From a virus (taxonomy: Duplodnaviria; Heunggongvirae; Uroviricota; Caudoviricetes): DNA of 27,433 nucleotides. The stretch's first letter is position 1; every line of letters starts with the position of its first letter. This document shows, piece by piece, positions 12,851 through 25,632 of the stretch. The stretch lies in IMG/VR virus record IMGVR_UViG_3300029042_000255. One strand, written 5' to 3'. Below the pieces are notes generated by a model that was not told where the DNA came from, searched no databases, and saw only the letters and a list, made by a program, of their open reading frames with translations. Both the position numbers and the translations under genes were made by a program.

Positions 12851-14635
12851 ATGGCGTACTCTGATGAAGTGATTGCTGCAGCAAAATCACTCTATCTGAA
12901 AAGGCACACCCCAAAAGAAATACAAAAGAAGCTCGGACTGAACAGCCCGCGAATTGTTTATTACTGGGCGACAAAGTTTGAGTGGTACACACAGCTTAAT
13001 ACTGAGGGCGTGGAGGATGTCATCGCCCGGCGTCTCGCTGTACTGGCGGAGCGTGACCATAAAACCCAGGAAGAGCACGATGAACTCGATCGCCTGATTG
13101 GCCACCACGTCAAACTGATGTCGGTCAGGAACAAGCACACAGAACGAATGGCCGAGATAGAACGAATGGGGGCTGATATTCCCCGGTCTGGCCGTTATGG
13201 AAAAGAAGAGCGCGGAGAAAAAGACGCGGATAAGAAAGAGCGTCGTCGTAAAGCTAATGATGTGTCAGGGCTGACAGCAGAGAGTTTTGAGCCGTTTACC
13301 AAAAAACTGTTCGCTTATCAGTTGCATCTGCGTGAAAACAAATTCCGTCGTGTACGCAACCTGCTTAAATCGCGCCAGATTGGGGCGACGTATTACTTCG
13401 CGTTTGAGGCGTTCGAAGATGCGGTATTAACCGGCGACACACAGATATTTTTATCGGCATCAAAACGTCAGGCCGAAGTGTTCCGCACCTATATCGTTAA
13501 GATTGCACAGACGGAATTTGGCATTCCCATTAAAGGCAACCCGGTTAAGTTAAGTAATCTGGCTGAACTGTATTTTCTGGCGACCAACAGTAACACGGCG
13601 CAGTCAAACAGCGGCCACCTGTACATTGACGAATATCTGTGGATCCCCGGCTTTCGTCGCCTCAATGAAGTGGCGTCCGGTATGGCCACCCACTCGCACT
13701 GGCGCATTACCTACTTCTCCACGCCGTCAACCAAAACCCATCAGGGCTATCCGTTCTGGTCTGGCGATGAATGGCGCAAAGGCGATCCGAAACGAAAAGG
13801 GGTTGAGTTTCCGTCCTTTGATGAGCTGCGCGATGGCGGGCGCGAATGCCCGGATGGCCAGTGGCGCTATGTGGTGACAATGGAAGATGCCATTGCCGGC
13901 GGCTTTAACCTTGCTGACATCAACGAACTGCGCGAGCGGTACAACGAAACAGCCTTCAATATGCTGTTTATGTGCGTGTTTGTGGATGACAAAGAGAGCG
14001 TCTTTAAATTCGATGACCTCGTGCGCTGTGGCGTTGATATCAGTACGTGGGAGGATTTTCACCCGGAAGATGCCATGCCATTTGGAAACCGTGAAGTGTG
14101 GGGCGGCTTTGACCCTGCGCGCTCCGGCGATAACGCCACGTTTGTGGTGCTGGCACCACCGCTGGTTGCGGCAGAACGATTCCGCGTGCTGGAAAAACAC
14201 CACTGGCGGAGTATGTCATTCCAGTTTATGGCAGAGCGTATCCGCAGCATTAAGGCGCGCTATAACATGACGTTTATCGGCATTGATGTTACCGGGCTTG
14301 GCTATGGTGTCTTTGAGCTGGTTCAGGGATTTGCCCGCCGTGAAACAGTGGCCATTCATTACAGTGTTGAATCCAAAAACCGCCTGGTGATGAAGATGCT
14401 GGATCTGATTTACGCCAACCGTATTGAGTGGGATGAGGAAGCCACAGATATTCCGGCATCATTTCTGGCCATCCGTCAGGAATCCACCAACAGTGGCAAT
14501 AAAGTTACTTTTACCGCTGAACGTAGCGAAGAAACCGGGCACGCTGACATCTTCTTTGCCATCGCCCATGCAGCAAGTAACGAACCCCTGAACTATAAGC
14601 ACAAGCGCAAATCAACATGGATCTTTCCTGCATGA
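12851..14635 (+). CDS. P: terminase large (ATPase) subunit, P2 gpP-like
   Basis: 594 aa. Strong resemblance to P2 gpP around LKSRQIGATYYFAFEAFEDAVLTGDTQIFLSASKRQAEVF. Confidence 0.9.
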   Translation: MAYSDEVIAAAKSLYLKRHTPKEIQKKLGLNSPRIVYYWATKFEWYTQLNTEGVEDVIARRLAVLAERDHKTQEEHDELDRLIGHHVKLMSVRNKHTERMAEIERMGADIPRSGRYGKEERGEKDADKKERRRKANDVSGLTAESFEPFTKKLFAYQLHLRENKFRRVRNLLKSRQIGATYYFAFEAFEDAVLTGDTQIFLSASKRQAEVFRTYIVKIAQTEFGIPIKGNPVKLSNLAELYFLATNSNTAQSNSGHLYIDEYLWIPGFRRLNEVASGMATHSHWRITYFSTPSTKTHQGYPFWSGDEWRKGDPKRKGVEFPSFDELRDGGRECPDGQWRYVVTMEDAIAGGFNLADINELRERYNETAFNMLFMCVFVDDKESVFKFDDLVRCGVDISTWEDFHPEDAMPFGNREVWGGFDPARSGDNATFVVLAPPLVAAERFRVLEKHHWRSMSFQFMAERIRSIKARYNMTFIGIDVTGLGYGVFELVQGFARRETVAIHYSVESKNRLVMKMLDLIYANRIEWDEEATDIPASFLAIRQESTNSGNKVTFTAERSEETGHADIFFAIAHAASNEPLNYKHKRKSTWIFPA

Positions 14636-15666
14636 GTAAAAAGAAAAAACACCCGGTCAGAGATAAGGTTGTCATGAAAGAGGGAGTCGGCAAAATGACG
14701 TTTATTGAATTTGGTGACCCGGAACCGGTCGCTGCATGGGGCTGTTATTACGGCTCGCTCTGGGATGGCTATAACGGCTGGTACACGCCGCCCATTGAGC
14801 GCATGGATCTCGCCATGTTGTCCAATATCGCGCCGTATCACGGCGCGGTATTGCGTGCGCGCGTGAATATGATCATGCAGGGTTTTCGGGGTGGTGGTGG
14901 TATGACACACGCCGCCATGGCGGCAGCGGTGACCAATCTGCTGATATTCGGGGATATGGGGCTGCTTAAAGTGCGCAATGGCTTCGGTCGGGTGGTGCGC
15001 CTGCATACACTGCCGTCGCTGTACCTGCGGCGTAACAACGAGGGGGGCACGGTGATTGTGCAGGCGGCACTGGAAGATCTCGTTTACCCGCCAGGCGAAG
15101 TGGTGTTCTTGGCCATTTATGACCCGCAACAGCAGGTTTACGGTGTCCCGGATTATATCCACGGGATGGAGTCGGCGATGCTGAATGTGGATGCCACACG
15201 CTTTCGCCGCAAATATTACAAAAACGGCGCGCATCTGGGTTATATCCTGTATTCCACTGATCCCAATATGACGCCTGAGCTTGAGGCGGAATTTCGTAAA
15301 GAGATTGAAAACTCGAAAGGTGCTGGCAATTTTAAGTCCATGTTTATCAACATAGCTGGCGGAGACAAGGAAGGGGTTAAGGTTATCCCTATCGGGGATT
15401 CAGGCACAAAAGATGAGTTCCTGAATATAAAAACCATCAGTGCCCAGGATCAGCTCGTTGCGCACCGTTTTCCACCCGGACTTGCCGGCATCATTCCCGC
15501 AAATACGGCCGGGCTTGGTGACCCACTGAAATCCCGCGAGGCATATTACAGGGATGAGGTTATCCCGATGCGCCGCCTGATTATGGAGGGGATCAACAGC
15601 GACCCGGATATCAGACGACTGGGGGAGGTGAAATTTATTCTTGATTTTGATGAACCCATGGAGTGA
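14632..15666 (+). CDS. Q: portal (capsid) protein, P2 gpQ-like
   Basis: 344 aa from the ATG overlapping the terminase stop (ATGA); an upstream ATG at 14617 is the alternative. Co-oriented with P as in P2. Confidence 0.8.
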   Translation: MSKKKKHPVRDKVVMKEGVGKMTFIEFGDPEPVAAWGCYYGSLWDGYNGWYTPPIERMDLAMLSNIAPYHGAVLRARVNMIMQGFRGGGGMTHAAMAAAVTNLLIFGDMGLLKVRNGFGRVVRLHTLPSLYLRRNNEGGTVIVQAALEDLVYPPGEVVFLAIYDPQQQVYGVPDYIHGMESAMLNVDATRFRRKYYKNGAHLGYILYSTDPNMTPELEAEFRKEIENSKGAGNFKSMFINIAGGDKEGVKVIPIGDSGTKDEFLNIKTISAQDQLVAHRFPPGLAGIIPANTAGLGDPLKSREAYYRDEVIPMRRLIMEGINSDPDIRRLGEVKFILDFDEPME

Positions 15667-15731
15667 TGTGCGGTATGGGGAAAGAGCGGGTAAAATCGGT
15701 GGCAGTAAAACGCTGTTCCGGGAGGTGGAAA

Positions 15732-15989
15732 ATGCGCAGACAGAAAGCGCGATGTCATTGCTGCGGTGCACATGCAGTGATTGAGAAAACAGCCTGGAAA
15801 ACCGATCTGTTTGCTGATGTGTATTACCGTTGCACCCGTCTCGAGTGCGGACATACCTGGGTGATGAATCTGACCTACTCGCACACACTGGTGCCCAGCG
15901 GGCTGGAGAATGGTGTGTTAAAGCTGTTGATTGAGCGGATGCGTCCGGAAGAAAAACAAATGGCTCTGGAGTTGTTGCAGGCCGGATAG
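15732..15989 (+). CDS. ogr: late-gene transcriptional activator, Ogr/Delta zinc-finger family
   Basis: 85 aa from ATG with GGAGGTGG SD. Exact C-x2-C-x22-C-x4-C spacing (CHCCGAHAVIEKTAWKTDLFADVYYRCTRLEC) diagnostic of Ogr/Delta/B activators. Confidence 0.8.
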   Translation: MRRQKARCHCCGAHAVIEKTAWKTDLFADVYYRCTRLECGHTWVMNLTYSHTLVPSGLENGVLKLLIERMRPEEKQMALELLQAG

Positions 15990-16009
15990 CTGACGCGCTT
16001 CGCTTGTCC

Positions 16010-16062
16010 AACCCGGAACGGGCGCACAAAGAATTTGCGCACCCGTTCCGGGTTTTCTTATT
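16010..16062 (+). terminator. intrinsic terminator: 13-bp perfect stem (AACCCGGAACGGG / CCCGTTCCGGGTT) followed by TTCTTATT
   Basis: Read directly. Lies between the ogr stop (15989) and the stop of the convergent Rrf2-like gene (16058). Confidence 0.75.
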
Positions 16063-16417
16063 CAATGGCAGACAACTGATAATTTGTGTCTTCCTGCAGG
16101 CTGGTTAAAGAAATATTATCCAGTGCAGCCAGAATAACGTGCTGTGTATATAATCCGGAACATTTCATTGCCCGGACAATATCACCAACACTGTAATTTT
16201 CTTTTGTTGGGATATATCCACCACCCGGGCCGCGTGTGGCTTTTACCAGGCTACTTTCCCGTAAATATCTGAATATTTGCTCCAGATATGACAGTGAAAC
16301 GGTTTCTTTGCTTAATTGCCGGAGCGAGATTGGCTTTCCGGTGTACTGTTTCACAAATTTAATCATTACCATAACTGCAACTGATGCACGCTGGCTTCCG
16401 GAATTATCTTTCATCAT
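16058..16417 (-). CDS. Rrf2-family winged-helix transcriptional regulator (short form, no Cys cluster)
   Basis: About 120 aa. Rrf2 signature ...SLSYLEQIFRYLRESSLVKATRGPGGGY...; start at the MMKD ATG pair. Confidence 0.6.
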   Translation of the reverse strand: MMKDNSGSQRASVAVMVMIKFVKQYTGKPISLRQLSKETVSLSYLEQIFRYLRESSLVKATRGPGGGYIPTKENYSVGDIVRAMKCSGLYTQHVILAALDNISLTSLQEDTNYQLSAIE

Positions 16418-16428
16418 GATTACTTCCA

Positions 16429-16716
16429 TTAATGGCATAAATTGATGGAGCGGGTCAGTGAATAAAGAGGCAATACATTCCATCCCTTAGAGCGCCAGCT
16501 GTCTGCAACATCTTTACTTCTTGTTATCGCCGGTATTCCAATAGGATTATTTGCGTGCATCCATGCCACTGGCTCTGCTTCCAGTGATGCAAGTGCGATT
16601 TCCAGTGCGATTAACATATTGTGATCGTCTTCATCAAGACCGAACGGGATGTCTTCGCGCCACGATTTAAACTCTGTGATTTTACGTTGTAACCATTCTT
16701 TGGTAATGGTGGACAT
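16429..16716 (-). CDS. hypothetical protein, 95 aa
   Basis: ATG at 16716 with AGGAG SD 5 nt upstream. Starts 14 nt after the ParR-like stop; its stop is 11 nt before the Rrf2-like start. Confidence 0.5.
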   Translation of the reverse strand: MSTITKEWLQRKITEFKSWREDIPFGLDEDDHNMLIALEIALASLEAEPVAWMHANNPIGIPAITRSKDVADSWRSKGWNVLPLYSLTRSINLCH

Positions 16717-16730
16717 AGTTACTCCTGTTT

Positions 16731-17045
16731 TCACTTCGGGAAAAACGCCTGAATATTCTTTTTCACCTGCTGCATATGGGGGGCGCTGTCTGCTGCTGGT
16801 TGCGCCGGTTTTTCAGGCTGTACTGGTAGCGGTGGCATCCTTATTTCGTCTTCTGACCATTCTGCCAGCGAATACGCCAACGCGGGGGTGCGTTTTATAA
16901 GAGCCAGTCCAGCCAGAAAAGCCGCGCGTTGTGCGCGGCTGCGTTCGGAGGCTGGCAGGCTGTCGAGGTAACTGCACGCCTCCCGTTCGCTCTTGACGAC
17001 GGCGGGCTTCAGATAGAAACTTATCCGTCTGGTTGGTGTCGTCAT
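16731..17045 (-). CDS. parR: ParR-like centromere-binding protein (type II partition adaptor)
   Basis: 104 aa from ATG at 17045 (AGGAG SD inside the last ParM codons). DSLPASERSRAQRAAFLAGLAL closely parallels R1 ParR DSIPQGERSRLNRAALTAGLAL. Confidence 0.65.
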   Translation of the reverse strand: MTTPTRRISFYLKPAVVKSEREACSYLDSLPASERSRAQRAAFLAGLALIKRTPALAYSLAEWSEDEIRMPPLPVQPEKPAQPAADSAPHMQQVKKNIQAFFPK

Positions 17046-17049
17046 TGAT

Positions 17050-18009
17050 TTACTCCTTGTCCATTGCGTACAGCCCATTAACCAGAGCAAATTGTGGCAC
17101 CCCGTCCGCGATGAAAGTCGCATTAACTCCGCAGGCTTCGCGGATAGCGGGTGCCACAATCTCCGCTCCTCCACCTACAACCATCACCCGCCCGTAACCC
17201 GAAAAACCCGCCAGCGCGCGGATCACGCGTTGTTTCAGTGTTTCCTCCTTTTCACGAATAACTGCCATCAGGCTGGCGTAATGCGTGTCATTGTGGATGT
17301 GCTGGCGCAGCCAGGCTTCATCGTGGCGATGTTCGATAATGGTATTGGCGATGTGGTGACTGGTGCGCATACCGTTGGTGGCCATCACCGACAGCACGGC
17401 ATCGGCCATCAGAGAAACGCCTACGTGTGGATCGCAAAACACCTGGCTGATACCTGCCAGTTGCCCCTGAACCTTTGCCACATCCAGCGTGGTTCCGCCC
17501 AAATCCACAATCAGCAGGGATTCAAACGGACTCATGTCAGCCAGTGCTTTAAAGCCAGCCGGAATGGATTCAGGCATAACCCGCACGTTACGGATAGTGA
17601 ATGTCTCGCCGTTCTGGTACTCCACCGGGCGCATAACGTTCGCTTTTTTGCGGTTGATGTTGGCCATGTCCGGCTGTGCGTTTGTGTCGAAATACTCGCT
17701 CAGTGGCAGGGTGACAACCACATCCACCTCCTGTGGCGTGATGCCTGATTTGACCAGCGCGTGATGAATGGCAATGACATTCACATCGCTGTACTGGTAT
17801 TGCGTGTCGGTCGTCTGGACAAAGCGATCGCTGACCGGATCAAAACCATAGCGCACACCATCAAGCATGTAGTTCGCGGGCTGCGTGCCACCGAACGGCG
17901 CAGACCATTCCGACTTGAAGCTGTTCGGGCTGATGGCGTTGCGGCGTTCGCCGTTCTCAGTCCATGCCAGCTTGATGTTGGTGGAGCCGTCATCGATACA
18001 AATTTTCAT
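17050..18009 (-). CDS. parM: ParM/StbA-like actin-type ATPase (type II plasmid partition)
   Basis: 319 aa. Multiple blocks shared with R1 ParM: MKICIDDGSTNIKLAW, SPNSFK.EW, YSDVNV.AIHHAL, ERKKAN, TFTI.NV.VMPESIPAG, LIVDLGGTTLD, VMVVGGGAE, LVNGLY. Confidence 0.8.
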   Translation of the reverse strand: MKICIDDGSTNIKLAWTENGERRNAISPNSFKSEWSAPFGGTQPANYMLDGVRYGFDPVSDRFVQTTDTQYQYSDVNVIAIHHALVKSGITPQEVDVVVTLPLSEYFDTNAQPDMANINRKKANVMRPVEYQNGETFTIRNVRVMPESIPAGFKALADMSPFESLLIVDLGGTTLDVAKVQGQLAGISQVFCDPHVGVSLMADAVLSVMATNGMRTSHHIANTIIEHRHDEAWLRQHIHNDTHYASLMAVIREKEETLKQRVIRALAGFSGYGRVMVVGGGAEIVAPAIREACGVNATFIADGVPQFALVNGLYAMDKE

Positions 18010-18040
18010 GTCGCTTTTCCTTATGTTGATTAATTAATCG

Positions 18041-18152
18041 TTTACGGGATTCTGAAATCCCGTTTTTGCCTGTTTTATGCGCGCTTCATATATAGCGGCG
18101 CGTTTTTTGCTCATTTACGGGATTTGTGAATCCCGTTTTTGTCTGTTTTTTG
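18041..18152. repeat. two ~39-bp direct repeats, each with an 8-bp-stem hairpin (ACGGGATT-N4-AATCCCGT) plus T-tract, flanking a third imperfect hairpin; candidate parC centromere/promoter or ori element
   Basis: Unit 1 at 18041-18079 and unit 2 at 18114-18152 are about 34/39 identical. Unit 2 and part of the middle hairpin lie inside the last ~22 codons of the gpA-like ORF. Confidence 0.5.
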
Positions 18153-20926
18153 TTTCCACTGGTCAGGCCACCCCGCAGCAGGTCTGCTTTGCGGCGGGCG
18201 CGTTCAGTTGTTTCACTGATTCTCTGTTCGTGCTCTGCGTCGCGGATGGCGCGCAGCATGTCAGAAAGTACGGTAACGGGTGTTTTCATGGTGTTCTGGT
18301 CCTGCTGAAGTGTGGATGCCAGGCGTGCGGCGGCTTCGGGGTCTGATTCCCCCAGCTGTGCCAGATAGCTGGCGACCGGGTTATGGCGGATCTCCGTGCT
18401 GCTTACGCCGTGATTACGGCTCAGGCGCTGCCAGAGCTGCGTGATTCGGCTGTCCGGGCGGGTATCCGGTTTGCGTACAATTTCAAATCCCTGCGGTGCA
18501 ATGATGCTGCCGTCAACGCACAGACTGCCGCCCCGTAACAGGTGCTGCATCTGTTGTTCACCGATATGCAGGCCGAGAGATTCAGCAGACTCCCGCCATT
18601 CTTTAGCGAGTAATTCGTGGTTATCAGGCAAAGGCCGCTGCTGTTTGCGGCTCTGTGTCCAGCTCTGCATTTCATCACTGCTGTTTTTTGCCTGTTTGTC
18701 ACGAAGCGAACGCATCAGCGCCCGGCGTTCGTGCCGTTTCAGTGAGCGCATCCATTCGTTCACTTCAACGCCGTCAGGGAGCTGCGGCCACGGTGCTGGC
18801 CGTTCTTCCGGCTGTTCTGTCCCGTTGTTGTCCGTTTCCTGTACACGGGGACAGTTATTGCCACGAGTCCAAGGGGCGGCAGGGCCGCCCTGAAGGTCAA
18901 AACCATTTTCGCGGGCGCTGTCTTCCGCTTCCGGTTTGCGTCTTACCAGCTTCCAGTTATCCGGATGCGTGCATACGCGGGAAGACTCCCCAATGAGCGG
19001 CGACCAGATCCCGTAAATCTGTACGCTCTGTTCACCGTAATCGTTCAGCTCATCTGCGAGGTCGTAGGCGGTGCGAATCAGGTAGTCTTTGCGTGGAACA
19101 AGTACGCCACCCTGTTTCTCAATGTAGGTGGCAAAACATCCGGCATCAGCGGCAGCGAGTACCGCGTCCATTGCGTCATCCTTCAGCCGTTGCGGGCCTT
19201 CCGGGTTGCGTGCCATCTGGCTGGCAAGGCGGCGCAGTTCACGCCACACCTGACGGGAGGGGATACCAAAGAACTGGAACTGGCGGACCCGGTGAAGGCG
19301 CGCCCAGCCGATGGCGCGTTCCACGCTCTCGGCCATTGATTTTCCGGTTTCGTGGTCAACGCGTGGCTTGCCCGTTTTCGGGTCGATGCCATCCACGGCG
19401 CGGCTGTCCAGGTTCTTTCCGATGTAGGTGGCGATGTAGCTGGTTGGTGTGCCTTTTGAGCCGTCTACGTACTCCGCCTTAAAACGCGGAGTTATGTCAT
19501 CGCCCAGCTCGTGGCGGTCTTCCTGAATGGCAATATCGCAGACGTGGGACACGATGGTTTCAATCTCGTCCGGATGTGCAAAGACCATCATATGCCAGTG
19601 CACAGTGCCGTCATGGTGAGGCTCCACCGTGCGGATGCCATACCAGCGCAGACCGTCGCGGTTCAGTTTTTTGCGGACCGCCGCAAAAAACGTGTTAACC
19701 AGGTAATCGCTGGAGTCGCGCATGGTGGCCCCGTTCCATTTGGGGTTCGGATGACCGTTCTCCGTTGTTGCGTGGTATTTTGACGGGCAGGTGACAGTCA
19801 GAAACACCGCTCTGTCGCCACGGGCTTCGGCCAGAAGTTCCAGTCCCTTCATGGTGGCCATCATTTCTGCCTTACGGTGAACCGGGTTACTTACTCCCGC
19901 GTAATACACCGTCTCGAGATCAATCGTGAACCCGTCTTCATTTTCCAGCATGAAACTTTTCAGAAAATCGCGTGTTTTCTCGCGCTGTGCGCGAAACTCG
20001 CTTAACGCGTCCTGGCTCAGATAGGGTGATGTTTTTCTGGAAACCAGACAGGCGGCACGGAGTTGTTCTTCCCGCCACTCGCAACGTAAAAGCCACAGTT
20101 TGTGTTTCCACCATTCCGCACAGGTCAGGCGAAGGATGGCACCCGGCAGCAGCTCCGTATTCGGTGCGTTCTTCCGGTCTTTGTCCGTTCTCAGTGCTTC
20201 GTAATGCGGCGGCATGGTGTGCAGATGTAACGCCATGCGGGCCAGCATCTGATACGCCTTCAGCGCAATTTTCATGGTCAGCTCGCCATCGGTCGCGCCA
20301 AAGTTATCGCAGAGTGTTTCAAAAGTGCTGCTGAACATCGCCGCCGTCATGGTGGCCAGCGTCTGTATCTGGTGTTTGTTGAGCTGCGGCAGGTAAAGCA
20401 AATCGTCCAGGCGTTCGCGTCCGGCAAGGGAGCAATAACACGGTGTCAGCCAGCGTCCGTCAGTGCGTTTCAGACGTTTGAATATTTTGAGCAGGGTTCC
20501 TTGTGCATAGCGTTCTGCCAGCCTGGCGTTTTTTCCTTTCTGGCGGTCAGATTCCTGCTTCTTACGTAAAAAAGAGAGGCGGCGGCTCAGGGGGTCTCGC
20601 AGATAAACGGGAAGTGCCTTCAGTTCGGCAAAGGCGCAGGCCACCGGGTCTTGCTTTATTTCCTGGCGCTTACTGATGATGTTTTTTATCAGTTTTTCGC
20701 GTTGCCCGGCTTCCTCAAGGGATGCCATGAGTTTTTTACCCATGGCGGATTGTGCGAAAAAGGCTTCTTCCTTCGCATCCTGTTCTTCCTGAGCCTTTTT
20801 GTCCGCCTCATAGTAGTAACGAATGGCGCGTTGCAGTCCGGTTTTTGGCAACTGGCTGAAGTTCGCGAAGTCGTCCGGATCAATAGCTGGCTGCGGTTCA
20901 TTCCAGCTCCATGCAAACTCACTCAT
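18086..20926 (-). CDS. A: replication initiation protein, P2 gpA-like HUH rolling-circle endonuclease
   Basis: 946 aa from ATG at 20926, which overlaps the stop of the upstream gene (ATGA). HUH motif (VHWHMMVFAHPDE) and paired-tyrosine motif (SYIATYIGKNLD). Confidence 0.75.
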   Translation of the reverse strand: MSEFAWSWNEPQPAIDPDDFANFSQLPKTGLQRAIRYYYEADKKAQEEQDAKEEAFFAQSAMGKKLMASLEEAGQREKLIKNIISKRQEIKQDPVACAFAELKALPVYLRDPLSRRLSFLRKKQESDRQKGKNARLAERYAQGTLLKIFKRLKRTDGRWLTPCYCSLAGRERLDDLLYLPQLNKHQIQTLATMTAAMFSSTFETLCDNFGATDGELTMKIALKAYQMLARMALHLHTMPPHYEALRTDKDRKNAPNTELLPGAILRLTCAEWWKHKLWLLRCEWREEQLRAACLVSRKTSPYLSQDALSEFRAQREKTRDFLKSFMLENEDGFTIDLETVYYAGVSNPVHRKAEMMATMKGLELLAEARGDRAVFLTVTCPSKYHATTENGHPNPKWNGATMRDSSDYLVNTFFAAVRKKLNRDGLRWYGIRTVEPHHDGTVHWHMMVFAHPDEIETIVSHVCDIAIQEDRHELGDDITPRFKAEYVDGSKGTPTSYIATYIGKNLDSRAVDGIDPKTGKPRVDHETGKSMAESVERAIGWARLHRVRQFQFFGIPSRQVWRELRRLASQMARNPEGPQRLKDDAMDAVLAAADAGCFATYIEKQGGVLVPRKDYLIRTAYDLADELNDYGEQSVQIYGIWSPLIGESSRVCTHPDNWKLVRRKPEAEDSARENGFDLQGGPAAPWTRGNNCPRVQETDNNGTEQPEERPAPWPQLPDGVEVNEWMRSLKRHERRALMRSLRDKQAKNSSDEMQSWTQSRKQQRPLPDNHELLAKEWRESAESLGLHIGEQQMQHLLRGGSLCVDGSIIAPQGFEIVRKPDTRPDSRITQLWQRLSRNHGVSSTEIRHNPVASYLAQLGESDPEAAARLASTLQQDQNTMKTPVTVLSDMLRAIRDAEHEQRISETTERARRKADLLRGGLTSGNKKQTKTGFTNPVNEQKTRRYI

Positions 20927-21312
20927 GGCTGGTATCCCGTCACGCGCTGCCACTCCTGCGAGAAGATGACGGAAAGGCGGTTAAATTCAGTGGTGTATTC
21001 ACTCAGCGAGGCACACCCGCCAGCGGTACGATGCGCCAGCATTGCCGCAAATACGGAGGCCGGGGAGTTGTAATACGCCAGCAGGGAGTCGCCGTGTGGT
21101 GTCAGGGTGTACAGGGCCAGACCTTGTGGCGTGAAAGCTACGCGGTAACAGTCGTCCACGGTGAAATAAAGGGTGTCTGCGTTCTCCGGTTTTGTGGTGC
21201 GTGCCCGGCTGGCGCGGGCACGGAGATAAAAATCAAACATTGCCTGAAGTTTTGGGGCCAGACGGGTGTCCTGTGTGCGCACCCATTTTACGAAGTCGTG
21301 ACGGTCAATCAT
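20923..21312 (-). CDS. hypothetical protein, 129 aa
   Basis: ATG with AAGAGA SD; stop overlaps the gpA-like start. Confidence 0.5.
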   Translation of the reverse strand: MIDRHDFVKWVRTQDTRLAPKLQAMFDFYLRARASRARTTKPENADTLYFTVDDCYRVAFTPQGLALYTLTPHGDSLLAYYNSPASVFAAMLAHRTAGGCASLSEYTTEFNRLSVIFSQEWQRVTGYQP

Positions 21313-21384
21313 GCTGCAATTCTCTTTACTACAGATGTGCGAAGGCCTCCCGCCGCAAGGTGCAGGAAAGGCCCGGAACAGGAA

Positions 21385-21615
21385 TTAATGGAGTTTGTTT
21401 TGCTGCTGGATGAGATCCTGAAGAGACAGGAGGTCTTCCGCCAGATAGCTGAATACAGCGGCGCAGTAGTCGGCTGAAATAGTGCTGTTGAGTCTGTGCA
21501 ATGTGTTGGATTGCATGATAAAGGCGATGTGTGCAGCGCGGGTGAGTCTGCGATCGATTTCAGTCTGGATGTGACGACGCTCCGCGATAGCGCGGTGCTG
21601 TTTGCGGTTTGCCAT
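21385..21615 (-). CDS. hypothetical small basic protein, 76 aa (possible DNA-binding)
   Basis: ATG at 21615 with AAGAGG SD 7 nt upstream. Basic N-terminus (RKQHRAIAERRHIQTEIDRR). First ORF after a long non-coding region. Confidence 0.45.
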   Translation of the reverse strand: MANRKQHRAIAERRHIQTEIDRRLTRAAHIAFIMQSNTLHRLNSTISADYCAAVFSYLAEDLLSLQDLIQQQNKLH

Positions 21616-21794
21616 GGTGTGGCCTCTTTGCTAGTAAGTTTTGAAAACTCACCATCCAGAGCTGCGAAACTGTGGGTGGCGAGACGTACGAGGTTCGCAG
21701 TACCGGCTAGCAAAGAACCCGGCCCGACCGAAGTCGGCCCCGTACGCCCCGCCATAATTCGTGTGCGAAAAAGACGTGGCAATACAGTACGCAC

Positions 21795-21815
21795 AAAAAA
21801 ACCGCTGGCGCGGTT
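21795..21815 (-). terminator. intrinsic terminator for minus-strand transcription (stem AACCGC-GCCA-GCGGTT followed by T8)
   Basis: Plus strand reads AAAAAAAACCGCTGGCGCGGTT; on the minus strand the stem is followed by the U-tract. Confidence 0.6.
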
Positions 21816-21952
21816 GTGCGCTTTGCTAGTCAGCAGGCTGCGAAACCCGGCACCCGTTTTATGAGGTGCAGCGGAAATGTAACCTGACTGATTGCGGCAT
21901 GGCAAGCGGTTTTTTTGTGAGAACGGCATGCTAAAAAAATCCTGATACTGCT

Positions 21953-21977
21953 CCGGCCAGCGATTTTCACTGGCCGG
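21953..21977 (-). promoter_or_regulatory. GC-rich 8-bp hairpin (CCGGCCAG-N9-CTGGCCGG) 7 nt downstream of the SPFH gene stop
   Basis: Perfect inverted repeat read directly. A T7 run follows about 14 nt further on the minus strand, so not a canonical terminator. Confidence 0.4.
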
Positions 21978-21983
21978 GTTTAA

Positions 21984-22814
21984 TTACTTCACCGGAACAA
22001 ACGGAACAGCGGTATTGCTGGTCATGTATTGCGGTAGCGTGCCGTTCCATTTGTTGATTGCTTCCAGCTCCATAACGCCGGGATTCTGGCGCAGAGCTTC
22101 ACCGCGTAAACGAATGGCGTCGGCTTCAGCCTGGGCTTTTGTGCGAATGGCATCAGCCTGTCCGGCAGCTTCTGCGCGCAGCATGTTGGCTTCTGCTTCG
22201 CGTTGCTTGACTTCCTGTTCGCGTTGCAGGGTTTTCTGGTTTGCCGTGACTTTGGCGTTAATGCTGTCGATAACGGTTGGCGGATATTCCGGTTTACCGA
22301 CATAAGAGAGGCTCATGACCTGAATGCCGATGGGGGTCATCTCTTCTTGAATATCTTTAAGTGCTGAATCCAGCAGTTCAGACTTACCACCGTCGATAAA
22401 CTTATCGGTGGTCATTTTGCTGGCCAGTCGGTTGAGTGCATCGGCGATCTTCTGGCGCAGGTCAGTGTCGGTAATGTCATCCACGCCTTTGCGGTAGGTC
22501 TGAAACACTGTGGTAACTTTGGATGGATCAACCTTGTAGGCCACACCGATGTGATAGCCGATGGTTGTGCCGTCACTCATCTGAAAGCTGAACGGCTCAT
22601 CGTAGGTCTTCATTTGTTTGAAGGTCGGGAAGATGTAAACCTCGGTATTCCAGCCTGTCCAGTAGCGGCCAACGCCAACCACTTCACCGACGCCTTTATC
22701 GTCGCCCAGTTTGTTGACTTTGATGCCCACATTACCTGGTTCAACGCGATCGCAACCAACCAGCAGGATGGCGGCAAAAAGCGGGATAATCTGAAAGAGT
22801 TTGAATTTCTTCAT
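21984..22814 (-). CDS. SPFH/band-7 (HflC/stomatin-like) lipoprotein
   Basis: 276 aa. N-terminal signal peptide with lipobox (FAAILLVGC). C-terminal coiled-coil rich in RAEAAGQADAIRTKAQAEADAIR, typical of HflK/C-type SPFH proteins. ATG overlaps the upstream stop (ATGA). Confidence 0.6.
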   Translation of the reverse strand: MKKFKLFQIIPLFAAILLVGCDRVEPGNVGIKVNKLGDDKGVGEVVGVGRYWTGWNTEVYIFPTFKQMKTYDEPFSFQMSDGTTIGYHIGVAYKVDPSKVTTVFQTYRKGVDDITDTDLRQKIADALNRLASKMTTDKFIDGGKSELLDSALKDIQEEMTPIGIQVMSLSYVGKPEYPPTVIDSINAKVTANQKTLQREQEVKQREAEANMLRAEAAGQADAIRTKAQAEADAIRLRGEALRQNPGVMELEAINKWNGTLPQYMTSNTAVPFVPVK

Positions 22815-23014
22815 TGTTTGATTTCCTTGATGTACTTACTGAAAAGGCGAACAACGCCTGCCGGGTACAGCATGGCAATGAAAATGCCCAGCAATACCAG
22901 GAAGGAGCTGTCTGATGAAATCATTCGGGGGAGTAGTCCTGCATACAGAATGAGAGAAAAGAGGGCGCATACCAGCGCCCACATGTATGCGCGAAACCAG
23001 GTCCTTTCGTTCAT
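22811..23014 (-). CDS. small two-helix inner-membrane protein, coupled to the SPFH lipoprotein (NfeD/YqiJ-like partner by position)
   Basis: 67 aa with two hydrophobic helices (WALVCALFSLILYAGLL; FLVLLGIFIAMLYPAGVV). ATGA overlaps at both ends. Confidence 0.5.
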   Translation of the reverse strand: MNERTWFRAYMWALVCALFSLILYAGLLPRMISSDSSFLVLLGIFIAMLYPAGVVRLFSKYIKEIKQ

Positions 23015-23229
23015 GTCGGTTGCTCTCTTTTGTTATTCAGGAAAAAGTCAAAAACGTTATCGATGCGCATCATGAGTTCGCGCTGCATCGCTTCTGGTGT
23101 TTCTGGTTCGCCAGGTGATCCAAACCCAGCGAAGAAATCACCGATCTCGCTTTGAATGAGTTCCTTTAGTGTTGGCGGGGAGCTCAGGCGTGTGCGGCGA
23201 TGTCTGCGTGTAATTCTCCTTCTGTTCAT
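23011..23229 (-). CDS. hypothetical protein, 72 aa, Arg-rich N-terminus
   Basis: MNRRRITRRHRRTR...; AGGAG SD 9 nt upstream of ATG. Confidence 0.45.
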   Translation of the reverse strand: MNRRRITRRHRRTRLSSPPTLKELIQSEIGDFFAGFGSPGEPETPEAMQRELMMRIDNVFDFFLNNKREQPT

Positions 23230-23344
23230 CCGTGTGACTCCTGTACCTGTCGGACAGGGCTCACACGGAATGGCAGTGATTTTTGGGTAGACATTCTTTG
23301 TACGGCAGTCGTCAGTTCGCGTGGTTCCTGGTGGTTGATGGTGC

Positions 23345-23611
23345 TCATGCTCTGGCTTCCTTCAGTAGCTGGTTAAACATGTGGGTTAGTGGGTTGCCAC
23401 ACCCGAACGGCATCGGGTTTACGTGGTAAGAAGCCCGGCCTCCAGTTTTGCGAGCGCGACCACCTGTGCTGCGGTTTGTTTTGATGACTAAGCCGCCGCG
23501 CCAAAGTTGGCGTAACTCAGCATTAATGGCTGTGGTTGGAGTATTCAGTGCTGCGGCGATCTCTCCGCCGCTACAACCCGGATGAGTAGCGATGTAGTCC
23601 AGAATGGTCAT
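23345..23611 (-). CDS. small winged-helix DNA-binding protein
   Basis: 88 aa; ILDYIATHPGCSGGEIAAAL...LRQLWRGGLV reads as a winged-helix HTH. ATG immediately follows the upstream stop. Confidence 0.5.
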   Translation of the reverse strand: MTILDYIATHPGCSGGEIAAALNTPTTAINAELRQLWRGGLVIKTNRSTGGRARKTGGRASYHVNPMPFGCGNPLTHMFNQLLKEARA

Positions 23612-23811
23612 CTGCGTGGCTCCTGTACCTGTCGGATAAGATTCACCCGCGCCACGTTGGTGGCGCAGAAGTAAGTGCCGTCAGTGAGGTAGATGTGGTG
23701 TGCATCCTTTTCCGAACGATGTTTGTCGATAGTGGTAATCAGGCGTTCGTCGACCTCGTATTCGCGCCCTCTGGAGGTAAAGCGAACGACGGGAAAATGC
23801 TTAATTGCCAT
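23608..23811 (-). CDS. hypothetical protein, 67 aa
   Basis: ATG with AGGGGG SD; its last ~9 codons are duplicated in the intergenic region at 23233-23260. Confidence 0.45.
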   Translation of the reverse strand: MAIKHFPVVRFTSRGREYEVDERLITTIDKHRSEKDAHHIYLTDGTYFCATNVARVNLIRQVQEPRR

Positions 23812-23834
23812 TGCACCCCCTTTGTCCAGTAACC

Positions 23835-24245
23835 CTATGCGTTAAATACGGTGTGTCGGGCGTCATCAATGAATGCAACTTGAGAGCGCTCTATCAGGCG
23901 GAGATTTGTCAGAAGCGCTGATTCCCTTATGGGGTGAGGAGTGATCAGGTATTTGTTCTGTAATCCGGCGATAATGGTGTATCGCTGTGGCTCCGAGCCA
24001 ATAGTGTAAATAAGGCGTCCGGTGTCAGATAAATCCAGTCCGGTGACTGGTTTAGTTTTGAGAAGCGCAAGTTCCACACCCTGTTCTTCGATGATTTTGG
24101 CAGCTTCTGCCGTGACTTTTGCGACTATCATTGTGTGGGTTGCGACGTCCATGTGAGCATTGGCCACGGCTTTTTTCGCTACTTCGCTTTCCATCTTTGA
24201 AATTTCTTTCAGTGCTCTGATGATACCTTCTTCTTTTGCGTGCAT
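23835..24245 (-). CDS. hypothetical protein, 136 aa
   Basis: ORF with GGAG SD about 9 nt upstream; preceded by a 96-bp AT-rich gap. Confidence 0.45.
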   Translation of the reverse strand: MHAKEEGIIRALKEISKMESEVAKKAVANAHMDVATHTMIVAKVTAEAAKIIEEQGVELALLKTKPVTGLDLSDTGRLIYTIGSEPQRYTIIAGLQNKYLITPHPIRESALLTNLRLIERSQVAFIDDARHTVFNA

Positions 24246-24341
24246 TTTTGTATCTCCGTTATTTTCGTGTGCGAATACCTCCGTTAATACGGATGGTTTT
24301 CACGTTTTCTTATTTAATTTGATGTTTTATTTGTATCGTTA

Positions 24342-24452
24342 TTCACCAGTGAAAAAGCGTTCAATCTTTTTTACTGAATGAATAATTCGCATAATCCCAA
24401 TAGCGCAGGCCACCGAAATAATCAGAACAAGCCATGAGATAAATATACTCAT
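24342..24452 (-). CDS. 37-aa hydrophobic single-pass membrane peptide
   Basis: Hand-translated MSIFISWLVLIISVACAIGIMRIIHSVKKIERFFTGE. ATG overlaps the TGA of the upstream 80-aa gene (ATGA). Not in the ORF track (below cutoff). Confidence 0.4.
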
Positions 24453-24691
24453 GCAATATTCCCCAGTTTATATGGCTCAATATGGTCCCCGTTTTCTGCG
24501 GCGCAGACGAGTATGGAAAGCTCGTCGAGCGCGTCCGGGTCGTCAATGTAAAAAGCTGTGTCGTATATACTCTTGATGGCCCTGGTCAATGACTCTCGGG
24601 CTGCGAGCTCAGCATGAGTGCCTGATGCGCTTATGCGAAAATGAAAGCGCTCAAGTGCTTTATTGACGAGAGTTTTGTATTCCTGGTCCAT
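24449..24691 (-). CDS. hypothetical protein, 80 aa
   Basis: ATG with AAGGA SD 7 nt upstream. Confidence 0.45.
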   Translation of the reverse strand: MDQEYKTLVNKALERFHFRISASGTHAELAARESLTRAIKSIYDTAFYIDDPDALDELSILVCAAENGDHIEPYKLGNIA

Positions 24692-24702
24692 TGCAACGTC
24701 CT

Positions 24703-24981
24703 TTAATCTGCCTTCTGGATTTCTGCTTTTGAATCCATGCAGATAATTTCGATGTATGGTTCATCGCTATTAATCTGACGTGCCTTTTCAGCTTCGCTAA
24801 TGGCTTCACGTACAGTCTGGTACGGAAGCTCCACGATCAGTTGCGCGTTGTTCGCATAAACGTGAGTAACTGCTTTTTTTTCTGCCTGGGCTACAGCATC
24901 AATAGCTGATGCACGTAATAACAGTTCACCGCGAAAATCAATAAAACGGATAAATACACCTTGTGCATACTCTTTGGTCAT
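24703..24981 (-). CDS. hypothetical protein, 92 aa
   Basis: ATG with AGGTG SD. Confidence 0.45.
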   Translation of the reverse strand: MTKEYAQGVFIRFIDFRGELLLRASAIDAVAQAEKKAVTHVYANNAQLIVELPYQTVREAISEAEKARQINSDEPYIEIICMDSKAEIQKAD

Positions 24982-24991
24982 AAATCACCTG

Positions 24992-25333
24992 TTATAAATC
25001 AACCTGTTTAATAAAACTTTGTCCGCGAAGCAGACGATCAACCGTGCGAAGTGCTTCGTATAATGTGAAATCCTGCCCGAACTGATTGTCGCCGCTGCTC
25101 AGTGCAAAAATGCGGTTTCCGGTAAGCGGATTGCGTGGGCATTTGTGGACCACGATTCCAGCTTTCTCAATCAGCCAGGCATGCTCGCCGATTTGTTTTA
25201 CTGGGTAGCCATCCGGCGTTGCGTGTGTATCACTCAGGCTGTAGCGAGAGCTGCTGCGTGATGCACTGGTAGCGAAACGGTTAGCATGGCGTTCTGCGCC
25301 ATTGCGAAAGCGTGAATTACGTTGTTGTCTCAT
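24992..25333 (-). CDS. hypothetical basic protein, 113 aa (second gene of the early operon)
   Basis: Start at the internal ATG at 25333 with GAGGA SD; the track ORF extends into cox. Confidence 0.45.
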   Translation of the reverse strand: MRQQRNSRFRNGAERHANRFATSASRSSSRYSLSDTHATPDGYPVKQIGEHAWLIEKAGIVVHKCPRNPLTGNRIFALSSGDNQFGQDFTLYEALRTVDRLLRGQSFIKQVDL

Positions 25334-25344
25334 AAAAATCCTCG

Positions 25345-25632
25345 TCAAAGACCCAGCCAGAGCAACCATGCGTCGCGGCGTTCTTTCGGCTGATCAAAAA
25401 ACGCTTTGCGCATACCTGCGTTAAATGCTGGCAGATATACCCAGTTTTCTGATGCTCGCGTCTTCACTGAACCTGGTTTCACGAAGTCAATCGTTGGTAA
25501 CTTTGCAGCGTCAATCATGGTTCTGACGGTTGATTCTTTGCGACCAATCATCTTGGCAAATAGTTGATATGGCACCGCTTCAAGTGGATATGGTGCTACC
25601 TGAATGAACCCCTCAAGCTCTGATTTGCTCAT
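25345..25632 (-). CDS. cox: Cox-type excisionase / lytic-switch regulator (P2 Cox family)
   Basis: 95 aa. VPYQLFAKMIGRKESTVRTMIDAAKLPTIDF and ENWVYLPAFNAGMRKAF...RDAWLLWLGL closely parallel P2 Cox. AAGGAG SD. First gene of the leftward early operon. Confidence 0.8.
   Translation of the reverse strand: MSKSELEGFIQVAPYPLEAVPYQLFAKMIGRKESTVRTMIDAAKLPTIDFVKPGSVKTRASENWVYLPAFNAGMRKAFFDQPKERRDAWLLWLGL

Follow-up and report, generated by a model that had tools for sequence, protein, structure and literature searches.

What is the function of two hairpin-containing direct repeats that lie between the replication gene and the actin-like partition gene of a temperate phage? The repeats occupy positions 18,041 to 18,152 of IMG/VR virus record IMGVR_UViG_3300029042_000255, a stretch of 27,433 nucleotides (nt) that we call the window throughout. 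The window represents a temperate phage of P88-like type (Xuanwuvirus, P2 family): its repeat region is 93-96% identical to Escherichia phages P88, PhiR44_2 and Chuche as well as to other Xuanwuvirus phages, and its right end encodes an integrase, a C-type repressor and Cox. An original prediction, made from the sequence alone, had considered the repeats as plus-strand terminators, as the centromere (parC) of a type II partition locus and as a P2-type replication origin. The workings of type II partition have been established on a handful of plasmids, and an integrating phage should not need it. Comparison of related loci nevertheless leads us to favor the second possibility: the stretch from about 18030 to 18152 is, with a probability of roughly two in three, the centromere and operator of a type II ParMRC cassette carried by this phage.

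Palindromic boxes beside a phage parMR pair

The repeats sit within a minus-strand early operon ordered gene A, parM, parR, a 101-amino-acid (aa) open reading frame (ORF) and an Rrf2-like gene, the last two of which converge on the plus-strand ogr, portal and terminase genes. The genes that flank the repeats are as follows.

18086-20953, minus strand: ORF of the gene A homologue (Pfam Phage_GPA, 6e-128)
17050-18009, minus strand: parM, actin-like segregation ATPase (Pfam StbA_N, 1.5e-82, and ParM_N, 2.6e-68; R1 ParM structure 1MWK, E 1.1e-93)
16731-17045, minus strand: parR, predicted ribbon-helix-helix centromere-binding adaptor (Pfam Plasmid_stab_B, 4.4e-24; pB171 ParR/StbB structure 2JD3, E 0.009, residues 6-62)

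By these family matches, parM and parR are a true R1-type pair that looks intact. ParM, whose ATG is at 18009, carries ATP-binding motifs that are invariant in our ParM alignment; ParR has the N-terminal strand TRRISFYLKP and a C-terminal tail of the form ...N....FFPK, of which aligned relatives keep N....LFP. The repeats (18038-18152) stand immediately 5' of parM in the parM-parR operon, the position that parC occupies in all described type II loci (PMC5016525, PMC9426499), and we read them as parC in part for this reason. Their components are listed below in order of increasing distance from parM.

18038-18079: direct-repeat unit 1, 42 nt, proximal to parM (repeat finder; 83% identity with unit 2)
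18044-18063: dyad box 1, ACGGGATT-N4-AATCCCGT, perfect, with 8-nt arms and a 4-nt spacer; its GGG-N10-CCC core is at -52 from the parM ATG
18077-18103: central palindrome, imperfect and GC-rich, with TATATA at its middle and the boxes equally far on either side (RNA folding)
18111-18152: direct-repeat unit 2, 42 nt, distal (repeat finder; start-to-start spacing to unit 1 of 73 bp)
18117-18136: dyad box 2, the same perfect ACGGGATT-N4-AATCCCGT with 8-nt arms and a 4-nt spacer; its GGG-N10-CCC core is at -125 from the parM ATG

The original prediction had described two direct repeats of ~39 bp, each with a perfect hairpin of 8-bp stem followed by a T-tract, and a third, imperfect GC hairpin between them. 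This anatomy holds, with the units lengthened to 42 nt: both stems are found, each running into TTTTTG on the plus strand, and the third hairpin is real in RNA folding, where 18077-18085 pairs with 18094-18103 with one bulge and a plus-strand TTTTTT comes next. On the parM sense strand, unit 2 reads AAAAAACAGAC-AAAAAC-GGGATT-CACA-AATCCC-GTAAATGA, and the box core in the window is GGGATT-N4-AATCCC. The pattern ACGGGATTNNNNAATCCCGT occurs exactly twice in the 27-kb window; with up to three mismatches allowed it has three matches against 0.11 expected, a number reached in none of 100 shuffles. The additional match, at 13511-13530 in the terminase gene (3 mismatches), was taken as chance.

The 73-bp spacing of the boxes is about seven helical turns, which places both on the same face of the DNA. 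A-tracts in the region are phased at 10.5 bp (power 10.8 versus 4.0 +/- 2.7; reached by 105 of 5000 block shuffles), which suggests bent DNA and agrees with DNA wrapped around protein. Between box 1 and the parM ribosome-binding site, the stretch 18024-18037 (TTAATTAATCAAC, minus strand) is near-invariant in 67 P88-like sequences, and its core TTAATCAA is also retained in Hafnia and Plesiomonas phages; the stretch matches neither the sigma-70 nor the IHF consensus.

The repeats travel with parMR and not with gene A

The company that the repeats keep in other genomes tells whether they are part of gene A or of the partition genes. When the window was compared by blastn with three other parMR loci (L002, from E. 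coli SWHEFF_58; L094; and L153), similarity was confined to the interval from 16893 or 16899 to 18150 or 18151, with different genes on both sides. The shared module comprises the two repeat units, the parM gene and that half of parR which encodes the DNA-binding part.

16899-18151, minus strand: mobile module of parC, parM and the N-terminal half of parR (blastn of the window against L002, L094 and L153; alignment)

In L002, parM and both repeat units sit after a different gene and similarity starts at 18151; in L094, an unrelated 155-aa ORF lies between gene A and parM and similarity starts at 18150. Because the cassette boundary (18150/18151) coincides with the outer edge of unit 2 in three independent contexts, the repeats belong to parMR and not to gene A. 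We also considered the repeats as a binding site of the Rrf2-like regulator (16058-16483) and rejected this, as there are repeat-bearing loci with other genes 3' of parR.

At its other end the module stops at a mosaic joint in the middle of parR (16893-16899). The N-terminal ribbon-helix-helix half (~49 residues) is common to L002, L094 and L153, whereas the C-terminal half and all that follows it differ: past the joint these loci carry SSB and small ORFs, versus the 101-aa ORF and Rrf2-like gene of the window. E. coli ParR homologues fall into classes of 54-90% identity, which probably reflect this joint.

What, then, of the overlap with gene A? The gene A ORF ends at 18086, so that unit 2 does lie within its last ~22 codons, as had been pointed out.

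18086-18152, minus strand: read-through tail of the gene A ORF (KKQTKTGFTNPVNEQKTRRYI, then the stop; last ~20 codons, covering unit 2 and the central palindrome)

Gene A homologues without a downstream parMR terminate where unit 2 starts (ending in ..NRNKE and the stop codon), and another locus, L139, has a stop codon directly ahead of unit 2. Within the P88 clade, substitutions in the part of the tail over unit 2 mostly alter the amino acid, 1-base indels produce unrelated tails in at least 6 of ~63 distinct sequences, and truncated variants occur too. Moreover, the same 20-residue tail (KQTKTGFTNPVNEQKTR..) ends both gene A in the window and the unrelated 155-aa ORF in L094 (1957-2424). Since homologues stop at this point, tails are frameshifted or truncated and the same tail is fused elsewhere, the overlap is an incidental read-through; on the same grounds, together with the amino-acid-changing substitutions, we rejected the tail as a functional C-terminal peptide of gene A. 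The annotation can be corrected accordingly: the last ~20 codons of the 'replication endonuclease' are not part of the protein and are a read-through artefact in this phage group. In L002, RefSeq annotates the tail as a 'DNA replication protein' pseudogene fragment.

A conserved box pair accompanies one ParR DNA-reading strand

The original prediction had looked to homologous parMR loci for the repeats. Our comparison covered 58 genomic loci, 80 IMG/VR loci and several obtained by exact protein look-up, and we scanned 69 parM upstream regions of 220 bp for GGG-N10-CCC. The motif is present in nine of them, always twice, at -51 to -59 and at -124 to -131 from the ATG, and absent from the other 60. 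All nine box-pair loci encode a ParR with the strand TRR(I/V)SFYL, whereas the 19 other readable ParRs differ (RRKITFYL, RRTIAFKL, NRKISFYL or similar). The box pair thus does recur in homologous loci, including distant phage loci: it is inherited with parM and parR, varies with ParR specificity (9/9 versus 0/60) and is tied to one ParR DNA-reading strand. In P2-like phages, a clade of parMR occupies the same place, between gene A and ogr/portal.

Among the distant members, the Hafnia loci L143, L274 and L277 and the Plesiomonas locus L145 have ParM and ParR proteins of 54-63% identity and boxes 72-73 bp apart. L277 (ParR 54% identical) has GGGATTCATGAATCCC and GGGATTTGAAAATCCC at a distance of 73 bp and retains the central stem with a different sequence. 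L143 and L274 have GGGATTGAGGAAACCC and either GGGTTCATTAAATCCC or GGGCTTATTGAATCCC, again 73 bp apart, with box positions 4 and 13 non-complementary, and L145 has a 26-nt direct repeat containing GGGACAACAAAAACCC and GGGACAACACTAACCC, 72 bp apart, with a stem of 3-4 bp and no T-run. What is conserved is therefore the outer GGG and CCC, the pairing of boxes and their spacing; self-complementarity is not conserved. Retention of the first with loss of the second fits a protein site for a symmetric dimer or tetramer better than it fits a folded strand. Within the P88-like group the pattern is similar, with GGG and CCC almost invariant and A-tracts invariant or nearly so in 67 distinct sequences.

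Other parMR loci have other layouts. Plasmid-type relatives carry blocks of ~11-bp direct iterons (e.g. TTCTCAAATAG) on both sides of a TTGACA/TATAAT core, and a locus whose ParM is 100% identical to R1 ParM (L033) has the R1 parC layout, with A-rich iterons and CCC every 11 bp. L152 is an AT-rich locus of the iteron type. A sister parMR with the ParR strand NRKISFYL is found in a clade of Serratia and Enterobacter P2-like phages (L008, L146, L147, L150, L151 and L275); in the 200 bp 5' of its parM, a GC-rich core is enclosed by an inverted repeat of 18-20 nt (GGGAACGAAATAGAAAAA..28 nt..TTTTTCTATTTCGTTCC), with flanking short GC palindromes (GCCCCTTAAAGGGC, GCCGTTTAAACGGC) that each have AAAAAC ahead of them.

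The exact palindrome was found at 119 loci in IMG/VR. At 109 of them a ParM start is no more than 250 bp away; of the remainder, five are truncated by the end of the contig and five hold a lone, unrelated palindrome. Searches of viral contigs with the Hafnia and Plesiomonas ParM proteins returned 0 and 1 loci, respectively. Of 5426 complete E. coli genomes, 1371 (about a quarter) contain DNA resembling 17960-18260, at 1531 chromosomal and 2 plasmid places and in no more than 3 copies each; type II partition cassettes are therefore very common in E. coli as a chromosomal, prophage-borne feature. Several genome records labelled as Gram-positive also hold contigs with an E. coli-type parMR, namely L006 (Vagococcus sp. 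WN89Y, ParM 97% identical to that of the window phage), L033 (Streptomyces morookaense) and L034 and L048 (metagenome-assembled genomes of Clostridiales and Lachnospiraceae); these most likely reflect enterobacterial contamination of the assemblies. The early operon of the window additionally contains cargo-like genes, all on the minus strand: an SPFH/Band 7 protein (21984-22814; Pfam, 5.7e-31), the Rrf2-family regulator mentioned above (16058-16483; Pfam, 3.9e-13) and a MarR-like winged-helix protein (23345-23611; 3.3e-06).

Terminators or a folded strand?

The hairpins could instead be intrinsic terminators on the plus strand, three in a row, that stop antisense transcription (late P-Q-ogr read-through across cos, or the product of an antisense promoter in parMR) before it reaches gene A and the origin. 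The plus strand does offer a stem-loop followed by a U-run. Both box palindromes pass a terminator scan, with TTTTTG after a stem of 8 pairs, TTTTTT comes after the GC hairpin, the T-tracts are invariant in the 67 distinct relatives, and the Serratia/Enterobacter clade has similar units of GC palindrome and T-run on the same strand. The minus (sense) strand of the repeat region has no stem-loop with a U-run tail; AAAAAC precedes each hairpin and AAAT or AAAC follows it, so that none resembles a sense-strand terminator.

Against this account stands the lack of a transcription unit to end. The family-supported ORFs across 16058-25632 are all on the minus strand, and ogr (15663-15989), the closest gene on the plus strand, lies 2 kb from the repeats, which bears out the earlier remark that no plus-strand gene reads into the hairpins; within 2 kb there is neither a gene nor a promoter-like site on that strand. 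The ogr junction (15989-16058) has a terminator-like site of its own, the hairpin ACCCGTTCCGGGT followed by TTTCTTATTC at 16041-16053 (+), just past ogr where the late plus-strand genes meet the early operon, and this is a likelier stop for late transcription.

Variation of the box stems within the P88 clade also fits a protein site better than a folded strand. Across 52 distinct sequences, not one of the 16 pairs in the box stems is altered on both sides; where pairing is disturbed, a mismatch or a wobble results. Of 80 distinct variants of unit 2, 46 are perfect palindromes and the other 34 carry a stem mismatch. The common transitions give a wobble on opposite strands in the two units (plus strand in unit 2, at 18130; minus strand in unit 1, at 18046), and neither strand is thus favored. 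The Hafnia and Plesiomonas homologues keep the boxes and lose the stem, the T-run or both, leaving neither compensated stems nor a terminator shape kept in orthologues. The repeats are thus probably not terminators, and we regard that explanation as unlikely, although a structural or terminator role, whether alone or beside that of a centromere, keeps a small probability.

A second possibility is that a folded single strand is the functional form, either as an RNA element in the gene A-parM transcript (for processing, stability or translational coupling) or as a cluster of single-stranded DNA hairpins on the strand displaced during rolling-circle replication (e.g. a priming signal), with the two boxes paired around the central hairpin. 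Both strands fold far better than shuffled sequences (z -6.6 and -6.7; unmatched by any of 200 shuffles), and in the minimum-energy fold, a nested long-range form, one box pairs with the other and encloses the central hairpin. Three pairs of this nested model show double changes, L139 among their sources, and the covariation score was reached by none of 500 shuffles. In the central helix, 2 of 7 pairs of the palindrome are changed on both sides (the ATAAAACA patch with C>T, and L109), and the stem retained with a different sequence in L277 points the same way.

Several points stand against a folded strand. A repeated palindrome folds well by construction. The double changes amount to 9 of 1300 cells and come from a few related sequences, and in trials of the covariation test 5-25% of unstructured alignments gave shuffle results of this kind. 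Hafnia-type boxes pair poorly both with themselves and with each other; the repeat region has no Rfam match at E <= 1, which led us to set aside a known RNA family; and the element travels with parMR, not with gene A and the origin. A folded strand is accordingly quite unlikely to be what the repeats are for.

A probable replication origin elsewhere in gene A

The repeats overlap the 3' end of the gene A ORF, and the P2 origin lies in the 3' part of gene A; the original prediction had therefore suggested that the repeats might be the phage origin or part of it, as a nick or binding site for gpA, to be judged by comparison with gpA nick sites in related phages. The P2 record (NC_001895) places the gpA nick within GCGCCTCG/GAGTCCTGTCAATAACTGT, at 29892, and gene A ends 427 nt further on; protein alignment puts the nick at residues ~690-700 of the window gene A ORF.

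18849-18895, minus strand: homologue of the P2 nick site (reads GCCGCCCCTTGGACTCGTGGCAATAACTGT; 720 bp from the repeats)

It is the only stretch of gene A for which blastn still gives a match in the Plesiomonas phage, at 85% identity. A 5-bp stem, GCGGC-N3-GCCGC, lies immediately 5' of the nick, and the Plesiomonas phage keeps it by a double change (GCAGC...GCTGC). By homology, 18849-18895 is probably the real origin of the window phage. The stretch 18041-18152, by contrast, has no nick-site homology inside conserved gene A: the repeats lie beyond the conserved end of the gene and travel with parMR behind other genes. The comparison thus counts against the suggestion, and we rejected the repeats as a replication origin, a role that is now highly improbable.

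A candidate centromere without a promoter of its own

In plasmid R1, the parC core holds the par promoter (PMC5016525), and the original prediction had expected the same here. Between 18000 and 18230 we found no sigma-70 site matching at least 9 of 12 consensus positions, the best being ATGAGC-16-TATATG at 7/12. A plus-strand candidate, TTGCCT-17-TATATA (8/12), was rejected as a core promoter; it reaches that score in the window only, as most relatives have TATATC. An internal, autoregulated par promoter is a feature of the R1 subtype and not of all parC, and parMR is probably transcribed from the early operon through gene A. The parC reading itself thus emerges as the best supported, by a true parM/parR pair, co-travelling repeats and conserved box pairs, and the promoter that had been attached to it does not.

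How might such a site work? We propose that ParR dimers would bind the half-sites of each box and that ParR would oligomerize over the bent core, in the manner of R1 ParR on split parC, to form a segrosome. The clustered C-terminal tails of ParR (N....FFP) could then capture the ends of ParM filaments, which would push two circular copies of the phage genome apart. As no promoter of its own is visible, ParR bound at the repeats would probably throttle read-through transcription from gene A.

Several observations weigh against a centromere. The boxes are inverted repeats, whereas all characterized ParR proteins bind direct repeats according to a 2022 study (PMC9426499). All three hairpins fully resemble plus-strand intrinsic terminators, and the Serratia/Enterobacter sister clade also has A5C followed by a GC-rich palindrome. 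There is compensatory change in the central palindrome, which protein binding does not predict, and there is no sigma-70-like promoter between the boxes, unlike in R1 parC. Finally, the literature that we searched holds no report of ParR binding to these repeats; nor did we find a paper on the partition genes of P88-like phages.

In a bolder version of the centromere reading, ParR of this clade would recognize dyad-symmetric GGG-N10-CCC boxes and not tandem direct iterons. Two boxes seven helical turns apart on bent DNA, with no promoter of their own, would then form a minimal type II centromere that resides in the early operon and segregates excised or replicating circles, and the hairpins could also insulate gene A and the origin against antisense transcription. 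We offer this extended version tentatively, as a possibility that is itself rather doubtful.

Comparison with known partition systems

The closest counterpart of the proposed centromere is parC of plasmid R1. Both stand immediately 5' of parM, are served by a homologous ParM (E 1e-93) and a ParR of the StbB/ParR ribbon-helix-helix family, and consist of two repeat blocks around a core (PMC5016525 gives the layout of known parC); the A-rich sense strand with short G/C clusters and the CATAAGGA ribosome-binding region are similar as well. The window, with its cognate pair of actin-like ParM and ribbon-helix-helix ParR, presents the split arrangement in an unusual form, in that each block holds an inverted repeat and not tandem iterons. 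R1 has ten 11-bp direct iterons in two blocks of five, versus two 42-nt repeats around 20-bp palindromes here; its core contains a promoter, whereas the window has a GC-rich palindrome and no consensus promoter at that position; and the element in the window is overlapped by the tail of an upstream ORF and lies in an integrating phage.

The pB171 ParR (StbB, PDB 2JD3) is the only solved structure with a sequence match to the window ParR, and its parC1, for which the reported sites are a pair of direct repeats, each of 10 bp, that lie upstream of parM (PMC9426499), resembles the window in its low number of sites. It differs in having direct repeats in place of dyad-symmetric boxes and in its DNA-reading strand (KKYTLYL versus RRISFYL).

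Partition on integrating elements has precedents. AlpAC/alpS of the Corynebacterium prophage CGP3 and the ParMRC-like system of SXT/R391 integrative and conjugative elements each combine an actin-like ATPase, a DNA-binding adaptor and cis sites on an element whose normal place is the chromosome, and they are precedents for partition in the service of the excised or replicating form; the protein families and the hosts are other ones, and the binding sites are unrelated to those here (PMC5539076, PMC4489591).

An R1-like ParM and a ParR of the same fold are thus paired with a candidate centromere of two palindromic boxes and no internal promoter, an unusual layout for a well-known plasmid system. 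Should ParR bind the boxes, they would offer a small centromere, easy to mutate, on which the seeding of a segrosome by ribbon-helix-helix adaptors can be studied. Why temperate phages carry actin-like segregation machines would become testable as well; these may, for example, hold or distribute phage genomes after excision or in a carrier state.

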